From a bacterium (GTDB lineage Bacteria > UBA8248): a stretch of 64,000 nucleotides of DNA. The notes below the pieces were generated by a model, which did no database searches, was not told the DNA's origin, and saw only the letters and a program-made list of their open reading frames with translations. Below, piece after piece: positions 48,772 through 58,896 of this stretch. Where the stretch lies: NCBI GenBank assembly GCA_963692865.2, contig OY843592.1, positions 2,464,001 to 2,528,000 of the forward strand, written 5' to 3'. The stretch's first letter is position 1. Every line of letters starts with the position of its first letter. Position numbers and translations under genes: made by a program.

Positions 48772-50127
48772 TTAATTCACCAACACAATCACCATATCCA
48801 TTACGTTGGTTCCCGTCGGCCCGGTGTATAAACACGCTCGCCGTGGGTGGAGGAAATTGTAGCTGTTATTATCACGCAAATAGGTATTTGGGTCAAGCTC
48901 TTGTTTTTGCGACGTTTTTGCAGTTCTCCCGTCAACGATTGCGCCTGCCGCCTCCGTGGGGCCGTCTTTACCATCGGTGCCCGCAGCCAGGAGACAGACG
49001 TTTTGATATCCGCGAATTTCAATGGCGAACGCGAGAGCGAGCTCTTGACATCTGCCTCCCAGGCCATCCCCCAAAACCCTCACCGTTGTTTCGCCGCCGT
49101 ACAGCAGGCACTTGGGAGATTGTGTTGAATGAGAATTACCCAAAATCCTCTTGGCGTCTTCCGCAATCGATTTGCCCGCTTTATCGGCTTTACCGCTGAG
49201 AGAGCCGGTTTGCATTTCAACGCTGTAGCCCATTGATTTTGCTTTTTGATACGCTGCATGTAGAGCGATTTCGTTATTCGCCACTACATGGTGGCTCACG
49301 CGCCTGAATATTTGATCGCCGGGAGAAGGGTTACCCGGAATCTCGCCCCTGCAGCCGGCTTCAATCCTGGTTTTGACTGCTTCAGGTATTTCTCGGAAAA
49401 CACCGTAGCGTTGCAAATATGCTTTCGCCTGAACAAATGTGGACGAATCGCCGGTGGCGGGGCCGGAAGCAATCACGTCTAGTGGGTCGCCAATCACGTC
49501 GGAAACGAGAAGAACGACCATGCGAGCAGGGAAGACTTTTCGGGCCAGATTCCCGCCCTTCAGACCGGACAAGTGCTTTCGGACACAATTGAGGGCCTCG
49601 ATGGGCGCACCTGCTTGCAGCAAAGAATTCGTCACGAACTGTTTGTCATTAAGAGAAATTCCAGGCACCGGTGAGGGCATCAGGGCCGAACCTCCGCCTG
49701 AGAGAAGAAAAATCACTACATCCTCTCGCCGGGCGCCGACAGCCCGTTCTTCGATTTCCCGAGAGGCTTCCAGACCGGAGATGTCGGGAGTGGGGTGTGA
49801 TGCTTCCAGAACTTCGATGCATCTGCATCTTTCCCCATGGCCATATTGGGTGACGACGGCGCCCCCATCGATTCGTTTTCCAAGTCGTCGCTCCACCGCG
49901 CGCGCCATCTGAGAACTTGCCTTTCCCGCTCCCAAGACGATGATTCGCCCTGTTTTATCGAGAGATATTCTTTCCTTGCCGAAAACGACAAACTCTCGTT
50001 CCCTGTCGAATTTTATGTAGCGGTAAACGGCTTCACCCGCATGTGCCGCATTCAGCCCGGCCCGGAAGATTGCGCGCGCGTCTCGCTTCAAGGATCTGCG
50101 GAGTTTTGATTTTGCGTAACGAGCCAT
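48772..50127 (-). CDS. Glycerate kinase type 2 (GckA/TtuD, MOFRL domain)
   Basis: GAGKA, HPTPD, LSGGGSAL, RKHLS..KGG, SDVIGD, GGETTV, GGRCQE, TDGKDG and TGPTGTNVMD motifs. Confidence 0.93.
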   Translation of the reverse strand: MARYAKSKLRRSLKRDARAIFRAGLNAAHAGEAVYRYIKFDREREFVVFGKERISLDKTGRIIVLGAGKASSQMARAVERRLGKRIDGGAVVTQYGHGERCRCIEVLEASHPTPDISGLEASREIEERAVGARREDVVIFLLSGGGSALMPSPVPGISLNDKQFVTNSLLQAGAPIEALNCVRKHLSGLKGGNLARKVFPARMVVLLVSDVIGDPLDVIASGPATGDSSTFVQAKAYLQRYGVFREIPEAVKTRIEAGCRGEIPGNPSPGDQIFRRVSHHVVANNEIALHAAYQKAKSMGYSVEMQTGSLSGKADKAGKSIAEDAKRILGNSHSTQSPKCLLYGGETTVRVLGDGLGGRCQELALAFAIEIRGYQNVCLLAAGTDGKDGPTEAAGAIVDGRTAKTSQKQELDPNTYLRDNNSYNFLHPRRACLYTGPTGTNVMDMVIVLVN

Positions 50128-50245
50128 TTTATTGATTGAGGAAATAGAACGTGAATAGTGCTTCACCCTTTTCTTTGATCCGATGTAATCTTGATTTTAC
50201 ATGAAATCGGTGGTTCTTGCCCGGCGTCAAATTAAAGGAGAAGAA

Positions 50246-51250
50246 GTGGCGAGTGTCGGAATCATTGCCAACCCGCAATCAGGAAAAGACATTCGTAGGC
50301 TGGTTGCGTTGGCGAGTTCTTTCAGCAACAACGAAAAGGTGCTCATACTTCGCCGCGTGATGGCTGGTCTGGTGGCGATGGGCCTCGACAGGATATTGAT
50401 GTTCAACGACCTCGGTTCCTTGGGAGCCGTTGCGCTCGATGGCTTTCGCCAGGATAACAAGTCCTCGAAAGTGAAGCTTTTTGACGTGGACGCCACGGGA
50501 GAGACGGCGGATTCCACCAAAGCGGCTCGCAAACTCGCCGAACTGGGAGTTCGATGTATTATTGTTCTCGGGGGCGATGGCACTTGCCGCGCCGTCGCCA
50601 AGGGATGCGGAAAAACCGCCTTAATTCCATTGTCGACCGGGACGAACAATGCCTTTCCTTTTGCGTGGGAAGGGACAGTGGCCGGTATGGCCGCTGCTTT
50701 GTATGCTTTTCAGCCGAGAGTCTATCAAGGCGAGATGCAAGTAACGAAACAACTCCATGTGGATCTGAATGGCGCCTCCGAAAGCGCCCTGGTTGATATC
50801 GCGATTCTCAAGGAATCATTCTACGGCGCGCGCGCAATTTGGGATGTGGGACGTGTGGACTCGCTCGCGCTCACGAGAAGCGAACCAGGGCGTTTGGGAC
50901 TTTCTTCTTTGGGCGCAAGTATACACCCGGTCGATGCGCATGAGCCGCTGGGACTGTGGTTGAAATTGGGAACGAAGAGCAAGAGCAATCACCACATTCT
51001 TTCTCCTATCGGGCCGGGGCAGGTTGCTTCCGCCGTGGTGATGGAACACGAGGTCGTCAAACCGGGAGAAAGCGTAAGATATCGTGCGCCGAATGTACGC
51101 GTGCTGGCCTTCGATGGAGAGCGGGAGCATCTGTTGAGCAAAGGCGCAGAGGTAGAAATATCATTGCGGATCGATGGACCGACAATACTGAACGTTCCCG
51201 CCATATTGAAGAAAGCAGCCATTCGAGGTGATTTTCAAATCAAGAATTGA
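50246..51250 (+). CDS. acoX: ATP-NAD kinase/AcoX family protein
   Basis: GIIANPQSGKDIRRLVA, LGGDGT, STGTNN.FP and AFDGERE motifs. Confidence 0.75.
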   Translation: MASVGIIANPQSGKDIRRLVALASSFSNNEKVLILRRVMAGLVAMGLDRILMFNDLGSLGAVALDGFRQDNKSSKVKLFDVDATGETADSTKAARKLAELGVRCIIVLGGDGTCRAVAKGCGKTALIPLSTGTNNAFPFAWEGTVAGMAAALYAFQPRVYQGEMQVTKQLHVDLNGASESALVDIAILKESFYGARAIWDVGRVDSLALTRSEPGRLGLSSLGASIHPVDAHEPLGLWLKLGTKSKSNHHILSPIGPGQVASAVVMEHEVVKPGESVRYRAPNVRVLAFDGEREHLLSKGAEVEISLRIDGPTILNVPAILKKAAIRGDFQIKN

Positions 51251-51304
51251 TGGGCACGGCTTCACCATCGTTTCTTGGAGAGCAGGAGATATAATCGAAT
51301 ATGG

Positions 51305-51333
51305 TTGACAAAAAAATCCCGAGCGTTTATTCT
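51305..51333 (+). promoter_or_regulatory. Sigma70 promoter
   Basis: TTGACA (51305-51310), 17-nt spacer, TATTCT (51328-51333). Confidence 0.7.
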
Positions 51334-51336
51334 GCG

Positions 51337-51363
51337 TTAGCACTCAGTTCTGTCGAGTGCCAA
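51337..51363 (+). promoter_or_regulatory. CIRCE element (HrcA operator)
   Basis: TTAGCACTC-AGTTCTGTC-GAGTGCCAA matches 17 of 18 positions of TTAGCACTC-N9-GAGTGCTAA and starts 3 nt after the -10 box. Confidence 0.88.
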
Positions 51364-51509
51364 GATATTGATAATAAAGAATTTAATTGGTTTTCATGTT
51401 CACCTCGAAAGTTCTTGATGTTTAAATCACACAAATGAATCGCTCAGCTTGATATTCTGGGAAGAGCAAAACGGCTTGGACGCAATCGAATAATTTTGCA
51501 TAGATTCTT

Positions 51510-52490
51510 TTGGGGAGTCCTTCGTTGATACGGGTTGAAAACCTAACCAAGTATTACGGCAACCTTCGTGGTGTGACGGATATATCCTTCCAGGTCGAGG
51601 AGGGAGAGGTACTGGGTTTTCTCGGCCCTAACGGCGCCGGAAAATCCACGACCATGCGCATTTTGACGGGATATATGCCGCCTAATTCCGGTTCAGCATG
51701 GGTAGCCGGCATCAATGTTTCAGAATCGCCGCTGGAAGCACAGAAAAACATGGGATACCTCCCCGAAAACAATCCTCTGTACGGCGAAATGACCGTTACA
51801 GCCTACTTGAATTTCGTGGCTTCGATGAAAGGCATGAGCGGCGCGGAGAAATCTGCCGGCATCCAAAGAGTAGTCGGCAGTTGCGGACTCGATGAGGTCG
51901 CCAACCGTCTCATCGGCAATCTCTCGAAAGGGTATCGGCAACGCGTCGGTTTGGCGCAAGCTATGGTAAACGATCCGCCCGTGCTGATTCTCGACGAGCC
52001 AACTTCAGGTCTGGACCCGGCGCAGATCGTTGAAATCCGGAATCTGATTTCAGAACTCAAGGGGAACCGGACCCTTATATTGAGCACGCACATTCTGCCG
52101 GAAGTGAACATGGTTTGTGATCGGGTTGTGATCATCCACCAGGGAAGAGTTGCGGCCGAGGGCGCACTCGATGCTCTGGCGGCGAACCTGCAGGCGGGTT
52201 CGACCATACGTGTTTCCGCGACCGGGACCACAAACGCGCTATCCGATAAAATGAAGGCGGTGCCGGGAGTTGAGCGTATAGAATTGCTGGGCACGTCGAC
52301 GGGGGAGGAAGCGCATTTTGAAGTGTCCGCAAAAGGAGGCGAAGACATTCGCTCCGATCTTGTGGCCGCCGTATCCGCTGCGGAGGGTAAACTCACTGAA
52401 ATTCGTCAGGTGAGGCTGACGCTGGAAGACCTTTTTGTTCGCATCGTCAGCGGGGAGCAAAAGCATGATGAGGAAACCGTAAATGCATAA
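51510..52490 (+). CDS. ABC transporter ATP-binding protein (GldA-like)
   Basis: GPNGAGKST, GYLPENNPLY, LSKGYRQRVGLAQA and STHILPEV motifs. Confidence 0.92.
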   Translation: MGSPSLIRVENLTKYYGNLRGVTDISFQVEEGEVLGFLGPNGAGKSTTMRILTGYMPPNSGSAWVAGINVSESPLEAQKNMGYLPENNPLYGEMTVTAYLNFVASMKGMSGAEKSAGIQRVVGSCGLDEVANRLIGNLSKGYRQRVGLAQAMVNDPPVLILDEPTSGLDPAQIVEIRNLISELKGNRTLILSTHILPEVNMVCDRVVIIHQGRVAAEGALDALAANLQAGSTIRVSATGTTNALSDKMKAVPGVERIELLGTSTGEEAHFEVSAKGGEDIRSDLVAAVSAAEGKLTEIRQVRLTLEDLFVRIVSGEQKHDEETVNA

Positions 52491-53259
52491 CACCTTGTGG
52501 ATATGCCGGCGTGAACTCGCCTCTTTTTTCTTCTCGCCTATTGCTTACGTGGTCCTCGCGGCATGGACGGTATTGATGGGTGTCTTCTATTCCGGCGCTT
52601 TTCTCTCCTATGCCGTCGTTTCCATGCAATTGGCCAGAAACCCCCAAGCTGCTGCGCAATACAACATCACGCCGACTTCCGCCGTCCTCGAGCCGATTTT
52701 CTCCAGCGTAACCGTTATCCTCTTGTTCGTCGCTCCGTTGCTTACAATGCGATTGTTCAGCGAAGAGAAAAAACAGGGCACCATAGAGTTGATGCTCACA
52801 TTCCCACTGCGTAACGGACAAATGTTCGCTGGCAAATACCTCTCCATTTTGTCCTTCTATCTGATAATGCTGGCAATTACTCTCGTCTATCCGATTATTC
52901 TGAGTACTTTCGTCAAAGTGGACTGGACGATCGTCTCCTCGGCCTATTTGGGAATGGTATTGACGGGCATGGCGTTCCTTTCCGTTGGTCTGTTGGCCAG
53001 TTCATGGACTTCGAATCAAATCGTCGCAGCCATGGTCGCCTTCATGATTCTTCTCGCAACTTTCCTGATGGAAGCTCTCGCGATAGCAGCCGGTGAGCCA
53101 TTGTCCTCGATTCTCAGGCATCTTTCATTAGGCATGCACTTGCGAAATTTCATTCGGGGCATCATCGACACGCGCGATATTATCTACCTCGTCAACATCA
53201 ATATTTTGTGTGGTTTTCTCGTGCTCAGATCCCTAGAATATTACAGGTGGAGAGGGTAG
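52483..53259 (+). CDS. ABC-2 type permease (GldF-like)
   Basis: REL..FF.SPIAY, PLLTMRLFSEEKKQGTIEL..T.P, SNQIVA and RGIIDTRD motifs. Confidence 0.9.
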   Translation: MHNTLWICRRELASFFFSPIAYVVLAAWTVLMGVFYSGAFLSYAVVSMQLARNPQAAAQYNITPTSAVLEPIFSSVTVILLFVAPLLTMRLFSEEKKQGTIELMLTFPLRNGQMFAGKYLSILSFYLIMLAITLVYPIILSTFVKVDWTIVSSAYLGMVLTGMAFLSVGLLASSWTSNQIVAAMVAFMILLATFLMEALAIAAGEPLSSILRHLSLGMHLRNFIRGIIDTRDIIYLVNINILCGFLVLRSLEYYRWRG

Positions 53260-53263
53260 GGAC

Positions 53264-54952
53264 TTGGAAAACAGAAATCTTTACTTGTTCATCGCCTCCG
53301 CCGTCTTGTTGCTGATCGGTATCTCCGGCTGGGCCGGCCATGACCAGTTTTCCGACCCTCCCCGATGGGCGTACGCCACTATTGCCCTGGGGATAGTTTG
53401 TTTCGGGTACACGGTTTGGATTTCGCGGCGCGAACTTCAAGGCGGCATCCGGCTCCGCTCCACCCGAACGGGCATACAGGTTGCGCTCATGATCGTTGTG
53501 GTGACTGCAATTTTGGTCGTCGTTGAACTCGTGAGCGTAAAGCACTTCAAGCGCTGGGACGTCACTCCGGGAAATTTCTACAGCTTATCCGCGAAAACCA
53601 TGAATCTGCTGAACAAACTCGACAGAGAAAAAAAGCGGATCGAAATCATTGCATTTACCCGCAAGCTCGAAGAACCTGCGATAACGGAAATTTTAGAGCA
53701 ATATACCCGGGCGTCGACACAGGTAACGTTCCGCTTTCTGAACCTGGACGCCTCCCCACGCACCGCTAAAAAATACGACGTAGACGCCTATGGCACATTA
53801 GTCGTGATTCACCATTCCGGCAAAGAGGAAATCGAGAGGCAAAGAAAATCGAATTCCACGAACCAAGAGAAGAAGCCGACTTTCCGATCGGAAAAGATAT
53901 TCGAGCTTTCGGAAAACGCGATCGCCAATGCGATACTGAAAACCATCCAAACCGAGCAAAAGCGCGTATATTACCTCACTGGCCACGGTGAACGGCTCTT
54001 CACAGGGCAAGGGCGCGAAGCGATGCGGGCGCTGGCCATCGGCATGAGGGATGACAACTACCTGGTGGAAGAACTTTTGCTTCTGAGAAAAAAGGGCGTG
54101 CCTGAAAATACCAGCATGTTGATTATTGCGGCCCCCCAAAAAGAACTGGAAGAAATTGAAATCAAGTATATTGACGATTACATAAGATCCGGCGGAAGAC
54201 TTCTCGTTTTCCTGGAGCCCGACACAAAACCGGGGCGTCTCACAGCGCTCCTGGAGAGATATGGCTTCAAAATTCCTCAATCTTTCGTCGTCGATCCCGA
54301 ATCCGTTCGCTTTGAGTTGGCGGGCGGAAATATCATCACGCCGTTTGCCGTTAACTACGGACTGCACGACATCACCAAGCAATTACAGGGTTTGGCGACG
54401 GTGTTTCCTACGGTAAGGAAGGTATCAGCCAAGGGCATGCCCAAGGCGGGGCTGCATTCCGAAGAATTGGTCAAAACGGGCGCCGGAAGCTTTACCGTCG
54501 AGAGCGTGTCGCTTCAGAACGGACAACTCACCTTCGATCCGAAAACCAAAAAAGACGGCCCGATCCCAATCGGCGCCGCCGTCACCGTCACGCTGGATCT
54601 GTACAAGCTCGCACAAGGGCAAGGCGCTCAGGATGACGCGAAAAAGTCCGGATCCCGAAAGAGTGCAAACGGAAAAAACGAGGCGCGGATTGTCGTGTTT
54701 GGGGACGCCGATTTTGCGAGTGATGCTTTCATCGGTTCACAAGGCAATGGGAATCTCGTCTTGAACACCATTAACTGGCTCGGCGGTGAAAAAGACCTGA
54801 TTACCATTCGACCCAAGAGCCGTACGGGCGAACCTCTCGTTCTGGCCGGTGGAGAGGGCCGGTTCGTTCATTTGTTTACGGTCTGGATCATGCCCTTGTT
54901 CATCATACTTATCGGAGCCGCCGTCTACGTTCGGAGAAGGCAACTGCGGTGA
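53264..54952 (+). CDS. GldG-like ABC auxiliary protein
   Basis: N-terminal TMs; D.T....SLS..T, YYLTGHGE and RIVVFGDADF..N..L.LN..NWL motifs; C-terminal TM. Confidence 0.88.
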   Translation: MENRNLYLFIASAVLLLIGISGWAGHDQFSDPPRWAYATIALGIVCFGYTVWISRRELQGGIRLRSTRTGIQVALMIVVVTAILVVVELVSVKHFKRWDVTPGNFYSLSAKTMNLLNKLDREKKRIEIIAFTRKLEEPAITEILEQYTRASTQVTFRFLNLDASPRTAKKYDVDAYGTLVVIHHSGKEEIERQRKSNSTNQEKKPTFRSEKIFELSENAIANAILKTIQTEQKRVYYLTGHGERLFTGQGREAMRALAIGMRDDNYLVEELLLLRKKGVPENTSMLIIAAPQKELEEIEIKYIDDYIRSGGRLLVFLEPDTKPGRLTALLERYGFKIPQSFVVDPESVRFELAGGNIITPFAVNYGLHDITKQLQGLATVFPTVRKVSAKGMPKAGLHSEELVKTGAGSFTVESVSLQNGQLTFDPKTKKDGPIPIGAAVTVTLDLYKLAQGQGAQDDAKKSGSRKSANGKNEARIVVFGDADFASDAFIGSQGNGNLVLNTINWLGGEKDLITIRPKSRTGEPLVLAGGEGRFVHLFTVWIMPLFIILIGAAVYVRRRQLR

Positions 54953-56811
54953 ACCCCCGGAAGAATCTCATATTACTGCTCGTCTTGCTGGTCATCGGGG
55001 GGGCGTATTACGTCTATGACGTGAAATGGGCCGCCGAGAAGAAGACCGCCGAGGAACGGAAGGTCAAACTCCTGAAAGGCATTGACCAAAAAGCGCTGAT
55101 AAGAATTGACCTATCGAGGAAAGAGGAACCCTACGAGATTATCCGTACGGAGAAAGGGTGGCGTTTCGTGAAACCCATCGACGCCGTTGTCGATGCCGAT
55201 GAGGCGGAGAAACTCCTGGAAGCGGCGACGAAACTCCGGGAACGCGTCCGAATTGGAGACGTGAAAGACAGGGCGGAGTTCGGTATGGACAAGCCCGGGA
55301 TGAAAATTGTTTTTGGGCTGAAAGACAAGGACGACGTTTCCGTCGAAATCGGCGATAGAACTCCCACGCGTGAATTTCGATATGCGGCCTTGGCGAAGAC
55401 TCCCGGAATATTCACCCTCCAGCTTTCCGACATCGCCAAATTCGACAAGACGGTATTCAGCATTCGGGACAGGTCGATTGTTCCCGTTCTGCCCGAGAGC
55501 GCCAATAAGGTGGTCGTGGAACCTGATGATGGCAACGGCTTCACCGTAGTTCGCAAAGGCAAGAACGAATGGGCGCTGACGAAACCCCTTCAGGACAGGG
55601 CCGACGCCATCGATTCCGAGGGTATCGTATCCACCCTGAAATGGGACAAAGCGCAAAAATTCGTTGAAGAAAAACCCGAGAACCTCTCGCCCTACGGGCT
55701 GGATAAACCCCAATTGACGGTGCGCATCTTTACCGGAGACGATCAAAAACCCGAGGACGGCGTTATCCTCGGCGACAGAAAAGTAGGACCGCCCGACCCG
55801 AGAAGCGCCGAGAAGAAGCCGAAGGTTTACCGCTACGCCAGGAGACTATCCGGCGGCCCCGTGATGCTTATCAATGAGAAGACGTTCAAGGATTTACCCA
55901 AATCCGTATTCTCCTTGAGGCACAAGACCGTCATCGACTATGACGTCGACCATATCAAGCGCATCCTGATCGAGTCGAAATCCCGGAAACTCGACGTCGT
56001 CCGAAAGGCGAAAAAGGAGTGGGAACTCCACGTCGCGACGCCCGACGGGAAGCGGGAAAAACTCCTTGGCCGCCACAAGCACGTGGACGACCTCATGTGG
56101 GACATCAAGTGGATCAATTCGATTGCCTACGTGGATGACCCGGGCGATGATTTGTCGAAATACGGCCTTGAGCGGCCGGACGGCAAGGGCGCGCCGCTTC
56201 GCTACACCCTCTGGCTGAAGAAGAAAGAAGACGCGCCTCTGGAGGATAAGTCTTTGATTATCGGGCGCTTCGTGGAGAAGGAGAAGAGGGCCTATGGCCG
56301 AGTCGAGGGCGAAAAACGCCTGTTCGCCGTAAAGAAAGAAGATTATGACAAGATCACGAAAACGCCCTATTTCCTGAGCGAGCGGCGCTTGCTCCTTTAC
56401 GCGAAAGATGCTGAAATTACGGAAGTTACGGCGCGTTTTCCGAATCAATCCTCCATGAAGCTGGAGCGTTTCGGCGGCGGATGGCGTTTCCTCTCCCCGG
56501 AGGGCAGGGAGGCCGAACCCGGCAACGTGGAAGACCTCGTCGGCGCGCTCCGCGATTTCGAGCGGGAAGGGGAGGCCAAGCCCGGCGAAGCGCCTGATTT
56601 CAAAGACTTTATCGTAGAGCTCTCGGGCAGGGACATCCGCCACGGAGAGTGGGGGCCGTTCCGTTTCGCCGGCAAGGAAGGCTCGGAATTCATCTACGTG
56701 CGCGAGGGCGGGAAGGTCCACCGCATCACCAAGAAATGGAATGAAGACAAGCTGCCCAAGTCATTGAAAGACTGGGAAAAAGAAGAACAAAAAGAAGAAG
56801 GTTCCACATAG
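54949..56811 (+). CDS. DUF4340 domain protein
   Basis: N-terminal TM and repeated W....P...AD / YGL..P units. Typical fourth gene of GldA/F/G-type loci. Confidence 0.82.
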   Translation: MNPRKNLILLLVLLVIGGAYYVYDVKWAAEKKTAEERKVKLLKGIDQKALIRIDLSRKEEPYEIIRTEKGWRFVKPIDAVVDADEAEKLLEAATKLRERVRIGDVKDRAEFGMDKPGMKIVFGLKDKDDVSVEIGDRTPTREFRYAALAKTPGIFTLQLSDIAKFDKTVFSIRDRSIVPVLPESANKVVVEPDDGNGFTVVRKGKNEWALTKPLQDRADAIDSEGIVSTLKWDKAQKFVEEKPENLSPYGLDKPQLTVRIFTGDDQKPEDGVILGDRKVGPPDPRSAEKKPKVYRYARRLSGGPVMLINEKTFKDLPKSVFSLRHKTVIDYDVDHIKRILIESKSRKLDVVRKAKKEWELHVATPDGKREKLLGRHKHVDDLMWDIKWINSIAYVDDPGDDLSKYGLERPDGKGAPLRYTLWLKKKEDAPLEDKSLIIGRFVEKEKRAYGRVEGEKRLFAVKKEDYDKITKTPYFLSERRLLLYAKDAEITEVTARFPNQSSMKLERFGGGWRFLSPEGREAEPGNVEDLVGALRDFEREGEAKPGEAPDFKDFIVELSGRDIRHGEWGPFRFAGKEGSEFIYVREGGKVHRITKKWNEDKLPKSLKDWEKEEQKEEGST

Positions 56812-56880
56812 GATTCAGATCTCGCCCCACCCGGCTCGGCTCTTTTTCTTGAGGCCGCCCGCCCGGGTGATTTTCACCCC

Positions 56881-57108
56881 CGCAACTCCCCGCAAATCCG
56901 CGCATTTGCCGTTATCGAGAGAGTCGCGAACCATGGCAGAATTCCCCTGCGCTCGGGTGTGGCGGCGGAGTCCGGTCGGCTGGACTGGTTTTCGCGGGCG
57001 CATCTGCCCGCATTTGCGCGCATTTCCCCTCGTTAATTTATCGAAAAACCCCGTGAATTTATCTGATTTTATCCAAATTTATCGAATTGTTTTCGGGAAT
57101 TTATCGAA
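56881..57108. repeat. Helically phased about 10-bp repeats in a long convergent intergenic region
   Basis: CGCA..T.CC-type 10-mers at 56881/56891/56901 and 56999/57009/57019. (A/T)TTTATC at 57036, 57057, 57067, 57077 and 57099. Confidence 0.65.
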
Positions 57109-57495
57109 AACAAGTTGTCCTGCCGGGAGGATCTCGCTCGAATCGGCCGCGACAATTCCAGCTGAATGCGAGGCCCGGAAAATGCGGCATCGGGAGCGGG
57201 ACCTCCATCTCTGCCGGGCGCCTCATCCCCGATAAGCGAGTGGAAGGAGTCGCTCAATCCCCGAAGGAGGGAGAACGCCATCCAGCGCGCGAACGGACGC
57301 TCCTGGCGAGCGGTTCGCGCCGCGTCCGCTGCCTCATTTCCCATTCGAGCAGGACGCCCCCGCAAAAACTCATGCCTGTTCACCCGGTTCCGGCGAGGGC
57401 GATAAGCGCTGATTTGGACGGAAGGCATAGAGCGCGGCGCATGGCCAAGCGCAGGCGCCCCGCATCGATTCTCCAGGCGATACTCTCAAGACGCA

Positions 57496-58896
57496 TCAAA
57501 ACGACTCGAACGTGGGCGACTTGCTCCAGCCGCCGCTTTCCTCCTCCAGGGCGTGGGCGATTCTGTAGAGCGCGGCTTCGCTGAAATCAGGGCCGACGAA
57601 CTGCGCCGCAAGCGGCAGCTCCTCTTTGGAAAAACCACAGGGCAGGGATATGGCGGGCGCGCCCAGGGTGTTGACCCAGCGCGTGAAGCGCGTGAGGGAG
57701 GCGATCAGCCCCTCGGCTTCCGAGCGCGCCTGTGCGTGTGAGGGCGCGGGAGTGGGCGTCGTCGGACCCGCCAGAACGTCCACGGCGGAGAACACCTCGC
57801 GCTCGTAATGACGAATCAACCCCTCGCGCCTGGCGAGCGCTGCGCGATATTCGGCCGAATGAATCCCGCGCCCGGCTTCCAGGCGCGCCAGAATTTCCGG
57901 CGTCACCCGATCCGCGTATCTTTCCAGACGCTCGCCGTGCAGCATGAGCGCCTCGTATTTGAAGATCGTATTGGCGAGAAGTTCCAGTTCCTCGACGTGG
58001 GGAGGCGTCATCGGAACCAGTCGCGCGCCCAGCCGCTCCAGCGCCTCGCACACCTCCGCATAAGCCGCTTTCATCTCCTCGGAAACGCCGCCGAGTTGCG
58101 AACCCTCCACAACCCCCACGCGAACGCCCCCGATGCCTTTCTCCAGGGTTTGAATGTAATCGGGCACGGGTTGTTTGCTCGATCTCGCATCGAGAGGGTC
58201 TGCCCCCGCGACGGCGGAGAGCACAAGCGCGTTGTCCGCCACCGTTCGGGTGAGCGGGCCGAAGGTGTCGAGCGTCCACGAGAGCGCCATCCCCCCATGC
58301 CGGCTCACGCGGCCGTTCGTGGGTTTGAGGCCCACGACGCCGCAGAACGCCGCCGGCAGCCGGATGGAGCCGCCCGTATCCGTGCCGATTGCGGCCAGCG
58401 CCAACCCCGCGGCCACCGCGCACCCCGACCCGCTGCTCGAACCGCCCGTAACGCGCCCCTGCTTCCAGGGGTTCTGCGGATCACCGAAATGCTTGTTGCG
58501 CCCCGTCGGTCCCATGGCGAGTTCCGCCATGTTGAGTTTGCCCATGTTGACGGCGCCGGCTTCATGAAGCCGCTTCCAGACGCTCGACGGCGCGTCCCGG
58601 GGCGGGTCGTCTTCGAACATCACGCTTCCGCAAGTCGTGGGAGTTCCCGGAATGTGGCAGAGGTCCTTGTAGGCCACGGGAACCCCGTCGAGCGGGCCGA
58701 TTTCGTTGCCGAAGCGGAACCTTCGTTCGGATTCGCGCGCCTCCCGGCGCATCTCTCTCTCGCTGACGTGAAGATACGCCCTCAGATGGAGGTTCCATTT
58801 TTTGATGCGGGCGAGGGCGTCATCGACGACTTCGACAGGCGAGACCTCACCGGCCCGGTAGGCGTCTCGAAGCGCCGTTATCGTCCAGTCACTCAT
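57496..58896 (-). CDS. Amidase signature family protein (GatA-like)
   Basis: GPLDGVP..YKD, GGSSSGS, GTDTGGSIRLPA and G.KPT.GR motifs. Confidence 0.93.
   Translation of the reverse strand: MSDWTITALRDAYRAGEVSPVEVVDDALARIKKWNLHLRAYLHVSEREMRREARESERRFRFGNEIGPLDGVPVAYKDLCHIPGTPTTCGSVMFEDDPPRDAPSSVWKRLHEAGAVNMGKLNMAELAMGPTGRNKHFGDPQNPWKQGRVTGGSSSGSGCAVAAGLALAAIGTDTGGSIRLPAAFCGVVGLKPTNGRVSRHGGMALSWTLDTFGPLTRTVADNALVLSAVAGADPLDARSSKQPVPDYIQTLEKGIGGVRVGVVEGSQLGGVSEEMKAAYAEVCEALERLGARLVPMTPPHVEELELLANTIFKYEALMLHGERLERYADRVTPEILARLEAGRGIHSAEYRAALARREGLIRHYEREVFSAVDVLAGPTTPTPAPSHAQARSEAEGLIASLTRFTRWVNTLGAPAISLPCGFSKEELPLAAQFVGPDFSEAALYRIAHALEEESGGWSKSPTFESF

Follow-up and report, generated by a model that had tools for sequence, protein, structure and literature searches.

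A conserved CIRCE at the promoter of a GldAFG-like/DUF4340 ABC operon, and the linkage of this module to chaperone and protease genes

The window analysed here, a stretch of 64,000 nucleotides (C1:2464001-2528000) from a 4.15-Mb, 61% G+C bacterial assembly, contains a four-gene operon encoding a GldAFG-like ATP-binding cassette (ABC) system together with a DUF4340 protein; the promoter of this operon is followed by a controlling inverted repeat of chaperone expression (CIRCE), the operator of the repressor HrcA. All four genes lie on the plus strand. They encode a GldA-like ABC ATPase (51510..52490, with a likely start at TTG 51525; Pfam ABC_tran PF00005, 4.7e-31), a GldF-like ABC-2 permease (52483..53259; PF12679 and PF01061) with six transmembrane segments predicted from hydropathy, a GldG-like ABC_transp_aux protein (53264..54952; PF09822, 8.3e-32), and the DUF4340 protein (54949..56811; PF14238 in three stretches, 1.6e-56, 191.8 bits vs a gathering score of 25). 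The ATPase and permease genes overlap by 8 nt, 4 nt separate the permease gene from that of the GldG-like protein, and the latter gene overlaps the DUF4340 gene by 4 nt. Family matches and junctions thus bear out the four tightly coupled genes described in an earlier reading made from the letters alone (hereafter the sequence-only reading).

The promoter is composed of the -35 hexamer TTGACA (51305..51310, plus strand) and, 17 nt further on, the -10 hexamer TATTCT (51328..51333, plus strand). With 10 of 12 letters matching, it is the top sigma-70-like match within positions 50100-57500 and the one good promoter ahead of the operon. The trinucleotide GCG separates the -10 hexamer from the CIRCE, which occupies 51337..51363 (no strand assigned) in the form TTAGCACTC-N9-GAGTGCCAA; its full letters are TTAGCACTC-AGTTCTGTC-GAGTGCCAA, with a spacer of exactly 9 nt. 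The sequence at 51305-51363 is therefore what had been claimed for it, a TTGACA-17-TATTCT promoter with a CIRCE starting 3 nt later. Compared with the consensus TTAGCACTC-N9-GAGTGCTAA as given in PMC545781, 17 of the 18 arm letters match, the sole mismatch being T>C at position 25. The groESL CIRCE of Desulfovibrio vulgaris, listed in Table 8 of the same source as cTgGCACTC-N9-GAGTGCcAA (PMC545781), has two variant letters in common with the operator of the ABC operon, G at position 3 and C at position 25. Scanning the window with up to three mismatches returned this site as the single match, and none of 100 shuffled sequences gave one. Genome-wide, nine sites were found at up to four mismatches; the ABC-operon site was the best of them (one mismatch) and the only one in the whole genome with the perfect core GCACTC-N9-GAGTGC. 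Judged by its letters, the putative operator is far from a chance match. It is located at the promoter, 161 nt ahead of the likely start codon of the ATPase gene, and, being placed 3 nt past the -10 hexamer, would cover the expected transcription start.

The genome encodes the cognate repressor. An hrcA gene, whose presence the sequence-only reading had asked to confirm, was found with PF01628 (1.2e-66) and with TIGR00331 at 337.8 bits, above the equivalog cut-off of 197.2; hrcA is likewise present in all 51 species genomes of the phylum. Besides the ABC operon, CIRCE sites precede groES-groEL (two mismatches, just 5' of the -35 hexamer, with a second copy on contig C8) and hrcA-dnaJ (three mismatches, after the -10 hexamer, so that promoter and operator follow each other as they do at the ABC operon). 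The predicted CIRCE regulon of this genome is thus small and coherent, consisting of the ABC operon, groESL and hrcA-dnaJ. The groESL operator (genome G000, C1:1540568) has an imperfect left arm, TTAGCAGCC, which is shared by at least seven further genomes of the genus. As the ABC-operon operator is closer to the consensus than that of groESL, the tightness of repression may differ between the two operons. The second copy belongs to a larger repeat: positions 2600-7600 of contig C8 repeat the groESL region C1:1538000-1543000, including its CIRCE, with few differences, which is consistent with a second strain or an assembly duplicate at an estimated contamination of 6.69%.

Conservation of the site was followed through the 23 genomes of the genus by combining the coordinates of the GldG-like gene with CIRCE matches and inspecting the upstream regions. 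An operator with at most three mismatches was present at the syntenic position in 19 of the 23 genomes, and that of G009 has four mismatches. The element of G007 reads TTGGCGCTC-N10-GAGCGCCAA, where a compensatory A>G / T>C pair preserves the palindrome and the spacer has gained one base. Over the 23 sequences, mean pairwise identity was 0.84 for the left and 0.95 for the right CIRCE arm, 1.00 for the -35 and 0.88 for the -10 hexamer, 0.43 for the 9-nt spacer, 0.48 for the 3 nt preceding the operator, 0.57 upstream of the -35 hexamer, and 0.67-0.73 for the leader that follows the operator. Conservation of the arms at the level of the promoter hexamers, about a spacer that varies freely, is the expected look of a protein-bound inverted repeat. 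Among the differences from the window listed for contigs of two related populations, at 51331-51335, 51350, 51353, 51364 and 51367, none falls in the CIRCE arms.

The leader between operator and ATPase gene (51364..51524, plus strand) is AT-rich and shows conserved blocks in the alignment without a conserved open reading frame (ORF). The sequence-only reading had put here a gap of 146 nt free of chaperone genes. The figure holds for the first in-frame TTG of the ATPase at 51510, and a chaperone gene is indeed absent, but relatives align only from residue 5-6 of the ORF starting there; TTG 51525 is the likelier start, given the conserved N-terminus MIRVENL and the Shine-Dalgarno sequence GGGGAG at 51513-51518, and it makes the leader 161 nt long. 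At E <= 1, the leader contained no remnant of GroEL, GroES, Hsp20, HtrA, DAC or a 176-aa protein that is encoded between operator and ATPase in relatives (see below). A small leader ORF was rejected, none of the ORFs of at least 20 aa being conserved. The block ATTGATAAATAAAGAATTT (51364-51388), directly past the CIRCE, is conserved across the genus, and A/T-rich blocks resembling it occur after the operator position in G027, G030 and G034, genomes of other genera; the block may bind a second protein or be an element of the 5' untranslated region.

These features bear on whether the inverted repeat acts without HrcA, for example as a 5' stem-loop that determines how stable the mRNA is, or by binding a different regulator that recognises palindromes. 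According to the predicted fold, the repeat would form a 5'-terminal hairpin of the transcript, and the adjoining conserved block, otherwise unexplained, could serve such a regulator as a second site. However, a hairpin would tolerate any compensatory pair, whereas the CIRCE letters themselves are kept in most species and agree with the consensus at all but one arm position here, in a genome that has hrcA and further CIRCE sites at groESL and hrcA. The leader, moreover, folded no better than its shuffles (fold energy z +0.99), on which ground an RNA thermometer or other structured leader was rejected, and an Rfam search at E <= 10 returned two chance-level matches for the leader, neither near a gathering score. 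An HrcA-free role of the repeat is thus very unlikely.

We then considered the operon across the phylum, where the GldG-like gene was found in 50 of the 51 species genomes. In family f1, to which these genera belong, every locus with a visible upstream region has the same syntenic upstream gene, which in the window is the DAGK_cat/NAD_kinase-like neighbour at 50201..51250 (plus strand; Pfam), outside the operon. Outside the genus, 14 f1 genomes have a readable upstream region, and the contigs of five more end too early. Three of the 14 (G027, G030 and G062, from two further genera) show TTGACA-17-TATxTT followed by a CIRCE with three mismatches, and G028 has a four-mismatch CIRCE placed 7 nt upstream of the -35 hexamer. 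The expectation that CIRCE would be found before orthologous operons thus held for most of the genus and for part of the family; as detailed below, it failed outside the phylum.

A different architecture is seen in family f4, a class-level relative. In five of the six f4 genomes with the operon, a CIRCE with zero to two mismatches beside a promoter heads a cluster on one strand in the order CIRCE, htrA, a 176-aa gene, dac, a groEL paralog and the ABC operon (htrA-dac-groEL part at L005:2136-7143 in G044; also in L002-L004 and L006); G040 carries the same gene cluster without CIRCE. The sequence-only reading had suggested looking for genes between operator and ATPase in relatives, and in f4 there are these four. 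HtrA has a Trypsin_2 and two PDZ domains, the 176-aa protein lacks a family match, and the dac product combines DAC with a DacZ_P domain, so that the cluster would put a cyclic di-AMP synthase inside an HrcA-controlled unit. The groEL paralog scores as a GroEL equivalog, has a His-rich C-terminal tail and is not accompanied by GroES; f4 genomes also carry a canonical groES-groEL with its own CIRCE. By eye, the ABC operon begins about 50-70 nt past the groEL paralog, and a scan of L005 revealed no promoter- or terminator-like site between this gene and the ATPase gene, making co-transcription of the two plausible. Further traces of groEL were found in two other families. In f2 (G037), groEL abuts the ATPase gene at the end of the contig. 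In f3 (G038), a degenerate groEL remnant with its middle deleted lies on the minus strand of L087:2600-2900, between an M42 aminopeptidase gene and the ATPase gene; of GroEL, it matches residues 501-530 with 50% identity (E 1.5e-5, the database searched being tiny) and, weakly, residues 3-27 (E 0.23).

Because groEL stands 5' of the ATPase gene in f4 and f2 and has left a remnant in f3, the ABC operon seems originally to have been the last part of a heat-shock cluster under CIRCE control. The question then arises whether the CIRCE of the window is a mere relic of a CIRCE-htrA-dac-groEL-ABC ancestor, whose chaperone genes have gone and whose operator has lost its regulatory value. In addition to the groEL genes and the remnant, the f4-like operator-then-promoter order in G028 and the loss or decay of the operator in many f1 genomes fit such a history. 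So does a tree of GldG-like proteins in which genus g1 is sister to the CIRCE-less genus g5 (support 95/95), the simplest history then being an ancestral operator with repeated loss; since the backbone of this tree is unresolved and its G027 row is a wrong ORF, it was used for the g1-g5 pairing only. A functionless relic is nevertheless improbable. Conservation of the arms is on a par with that of the two promoter hexamers, in contrast to a variable spacer and variable immediate flanks, the double change in G007 preserves the palindrome, the ABC-operon site is the best CIRCE of its genome, and the leader holds no remnant of a chaperone gene. Origin as a relic is also compatible with present function, the ABC genes being downstream of the operator in both architectures. 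What remains of the relic scenario that the sequence-only reading had allowed for is thus a probable origin of the operator in an ancestral cluster; since then the operator appears to have been kept under constraint. Most likely, the chaperone genes left in f1 and the operator stayed on the ABC promoter, where it would have been maintained in several genera rather than decaying.

Next, the module was examined outside the phylum. As a search with the DUF4340 alignment reached same-phylum relatives only, the wider survey was done by profile search of 301 genomes, 51 from the phylum and 250 from other phyla. DUF4340 was detected in 180 of the 301 genomes (131 of the 250 outside the phylum) and HrcA in 213 of the 301. 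From the DUF4340 matches listed, the 75 best-scoring other-phylum loci were taken, each spanning about 6 kb 5' of the ATPase gene where the contig permits; with 239 further matches left aside, they are not a random sample. For 61 of these loci (58 genomes), the one or two longest ORFs just 5' of the ATPase gene were scanned with Pfam. The upstream neighbour was a chaperone, a quality-control protease or a folding catalyst at 18 of the 61 loci, distributed over 15 GTDB families, and at 14 of the 18 it lies on the strand of the ATPase gene. On this strand we found GroEL (L093, L107, L150), DnaJ (L108, via a DUF1844 gene, L133 and L152), ClpA/B-like AAA+ proteins (L094, L164), HtrA (L092, L097), PPIC rotamases (L098, L100), a DsbA-like protein (L095) and a peptidase of family M48 (L121); divergent neighbours were HtrA (L151, L163), VKOR (L135) and a peptidase of family S41 (L090). 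An htrA gene also lies 3' of the DUF4340 gene in L094, L107 and L164.

Six of the loci with such neighbours are situated at the 3' end of dnaK/dnaJ, grpE or groESL clusters. Over a further 4 kb in the 5' direction, DnaK, GrpE, Hsp20 or M48 was encountered in six already-positive loci and in none of 39 negative ones; a control taken from these 4 kb was dropped, as it is not independent of the already-positive loci. In its place, ORFs were picked by the same procedure in 39 of these genomes, at one arbitrary position each, 13-45 kb from the locus; a single proteostasis gene (ClpB-like) was obtained. The difference between 18 of 61 and 1 of 39 corresponds to a one-sided Fisher p = 4e-4 (p = 0.004 for the 14 same-strand loci), values to be read with the list of proteostasis families fixed after the hits had been seen and with related genomes being non-independent. 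Extension of seven of the loci by about 2-10 kb placed the ABC operon behind groES-groEL in three genomes and revealed dnaK upstream, on the strand of the ABC operon, in four; at L133 and L152, which belong to these four, dnaJ directly precedes the ATPase gene. Chaperone and protease genes are thus shown to be linked to the module in two families of this phylum as well as outside it, and this linkage supports the role in protein-folding stress that had been proposed from the window alone.

Other neighbours recur as well. The DUF1844 gene that lies between dnaJ and the ATPase gene in L108 (G297) is found directly 5' of the ATPase gene in L139 (G051), and may be a further recurrent partner of the module. 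In G090, from another phylum, a gene for a DAC homologue and a 315-aa gene without a family match precede the ABC operon (L110:4376-6282); this DAC homologue echoes the dac of the f4 cluster.

In characterised HrcA systems, GroEL-activated HrcA holds the operator, and unfolded proteins titrate GroEL, leaving HrcA inactive. By analogy, GroEL-activated HrcA would under normal conditions occupy the operator and so keep the four genes of the ABC operon from being transcribed. Titration of GroEL by unfolded proteins would render HrcA inactive, and the operon would then be expressed along with groESL and hrcA-dnaJ. On computational evidence, namely the operator, its conservation and its genomic company, we consider it probable that the CIRCE is a functional HrcA operator, through which class I heat-shock control would extend in this lineage to an envelope ABC system of the GldAFG-like/DUF4340 kind. 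Most likely, HrcA represses the ABC operon, and the module would take part in the response to proteotoxic or envelope stress; we infer binding by HrcA, induction by heat and the role of the transporter.

Several observations weigh against HrcA control and against its extension to the module at large, besides the limits of the neighbour comparison given above. Within the genus, the operators of G010 and G015 have decayed to six mismatches each, and as the whole leader is fairly conserved, part of the arm conservation reflects recent common descent. In the other genera of f1, CIRCE is absent from 10 of the 14 genomes (G034, three of g2, two of g8 and four of g5) although hrcA is present in all, so that the regulation is dispensable. 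In the genome itself, two dnaK genes and an htrA-dac pair are without CIRCE. Outside the phylum, none of the 75 best-scoring loci has a CIRCE at up to three mismatches, nor did the seven extended loci reveal one at up to four; at the 19 loci with chaperone or protease neighbours, the best CIRCE-like sites have at least five mismatches. Direct control by HrcA can thus not be generalised, and such CIRCE control as we propose is lineage-specific, being found in this phylum only. As for expression, the only RNA library with reads from the region, a metatranscriptome (X12), yielded three short, low-depth contigs, 95-97% alike. They fall within the ATPase and permease genes, leave the leader uncovered, indicate neither start site nor strand and may stem from DNA carry-over, so that they speak neither for nor against HrcA control.

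An ABC_tran ATPase beside an ABC-2 permease with six segments identifies an ABC-2 type exporter. In the GldG-like protein, two N-terminal and one C-terminal transmembrane segments predicted from hydropathy flank a large outward-facing domain, and the DUF4340 protein has one predicted N-terminal transmembrane helix. An AlphaFold2 model of the latter, built from a 49-sequence alignment of the loci examined (predicted local distance difference test, pLDDT, 93.8; predicted template-modelling score, pTM, 0.83), is confident and has four alpha/beta repeats arranged in tandem after the membrane helix. With the full-length model, Foldseek gave matches at template-modelling (TM) scores of about 0.1 and VIA-align a best Z of 6.4, to uncharacterised proteins; these matches being unconvincing, we claim no fold assignment. 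A sequence search of solved structures gave no match for the GldG-like or the DUF4340 protein.

We tentatively suggest, as a possibility to be taken seriously, that the ABC-2 exporter and the outward-facing GldG-like and DUF4340 proteins form an envelope-maintenance machine for proteotoxic or envelope stress, acting on a damaged or protective envelope component and not itself folding proteins. The broader proposal, that the module is a general, stress-induced and ATP-driven component of envelope proteostasis, a machine for the extraction, export or handing over of damaged envelope proteins or a factor required for their protection, is more doubtful. If it were true, HtrA, SurA/PrsA-type foldases and Dsb proteins would be its partners, different lineages would have wired the module to their own heat-shock regulator (HrcA/CIRCE here, read-through from dnaK-dnaJ or groESL elsewhere), and a first functional handle on the requirement for GldAFG in Bacteroidota would be gained.

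ABC-2 exporters typically move glycans, lipids or drugs. HrcA control could accordingly be real and the module yet serve, by export or bridging, the temperature-driven remodelling of envelope lipids or glycans, with no role in protein quality control. Weak IFT52 GIFT-type matches of the GldG-like protein point in this direction, as do the lipid A or other acyltransferases among the upstream neighbours outside the phylum (L143, L159) and the lipid-kinase-like protein encoded upstream in family f1. The recurrent neighbours, however, are mostly protein-handling (GroEL, DnaJ, ClpA/B-like, HtrA, peptidyl-prolyl isomerase, DsbA-like, S41 and M48 proteins), and we regard a pure lipid or glycan role as somewhat unlikely. 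The two roles are also compatible, as envelope protein and lipid homeostasis are coupled.

GldA/F/G-type modules that include DUF4340 rank with the most common bacterial cassettes to which no role has been assigned. The conserved HrcA operator and the linkage to groEL, dnaJ, clp, htrA, peptidyl-prolyl isomerase and dsb genes together provide a specific and cheap hypothesis on their function, which predicts that the module is stress-induced and that mutants are sensitive to heat or envelope stress. The broader result is that a very common orphan module accompanies chaperone, protease and foldase genes in many lineages. The locus itself would be a case of an HrcA regulon, usually limited to chaperones, that has retained a membrane system after the adjoining chaperone genes moved.

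Envelope stress regulons of Escherichia coli offer a comparison: sigma-E and Cpx induce DegP/HtrA, SurA-type peptidyl-prolyl isomerases and Dsb proteins. Common to both would be the co-induction of outward-facing quality-control genes, htrA and the ABC operon forming one CIRCE-headed cluster in f4. The regulator differs, the cytoplasmic repressor HrcA taking the place of an envelope-sensing sigma factor or two-component system, and we know of no ABC-2, GldG or DUF4340 member of the sigma-E or Cpx regulons. The gliding transporter GldA/GldF/GldG of Bacteroidota supplies the best-scoring named families and has the same order of ATPase, ABC-2 permease and GldG-type genes. It differs in that the DUF4340 gene is added here, the host is Nitrospinota-type, and the NCBIfam scores lie far under the equivalog cut-offs: 314.2 bits for the ATPase with TIGR03522 (cut-off 402.6), 133.6 for the permease with TIGR03518 (288.5) and 68.6 for the GldG-like protein with TIGR03521 (389.85). 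As all three are below their cut-offs, we name the system GldAFG-like and not GldAFG.

With the class I regulon as represented by groESL and hrcA-grpE-dnaK-dnaJ of Bacillus subtilis and by the delta-proteobacterial sites of PMC545781, the locus shares the 9-N9-9 repeat at promoter or leader, the presence of hrcA in the genome, and groESL and hrcA as co-targets. Here, the target is a membrane ABC system in a transcription unit without a chaperone or protease gene; groESL is described in that source as the only constant HrcA target (PMC545781). A precedent for other targets comes from chlamydiae, where phoH and CT_016 are predicted as extra members of the HrcA regulon (PMC4652624). Like the ABC operon, these are non-chaperone genes with a near-perfect CIRCE, found through phylum-wide conservation and comparative genomics (PMC4652624). 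They are different genes in a different phylum, and the ABC module is in addition linked to chaperones and proteases outside its phylum, independently of CIRCE.

In the literature on DUF4340 or GldG-like proteins, judged mostly by title and abstract and without supplementary files, we found passing mentions only and no link to heat shock. Papers on HrcA or CIRCE together with an ABC transporter or membrane protein, judged from listings, offered nothing on a link to the module, and no paper joining Nitrospina and HrcA was found. Published protein data nonetheless hold hints of a stress link. An ABC_transp_aux protein of Leptospira borgpetersenii is reported among the 50 most abundant proteins (PMC9679693); in Table 1 of that paper, its level at 37 deg C exceeds that at 29 deg C in all four strains, by 0.21-0.86 units of an abundance score of unnamed scale, the protein being identified by its family alone. 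At very high CO2, a DUF4340 protein of Synechococcus PCC 7002 is described as increasing along with ClpB and HspA (PMC12789804). Finally, a gene of V. spinosum is reported to contain an essential DUF4340 domain (PMC12283558).

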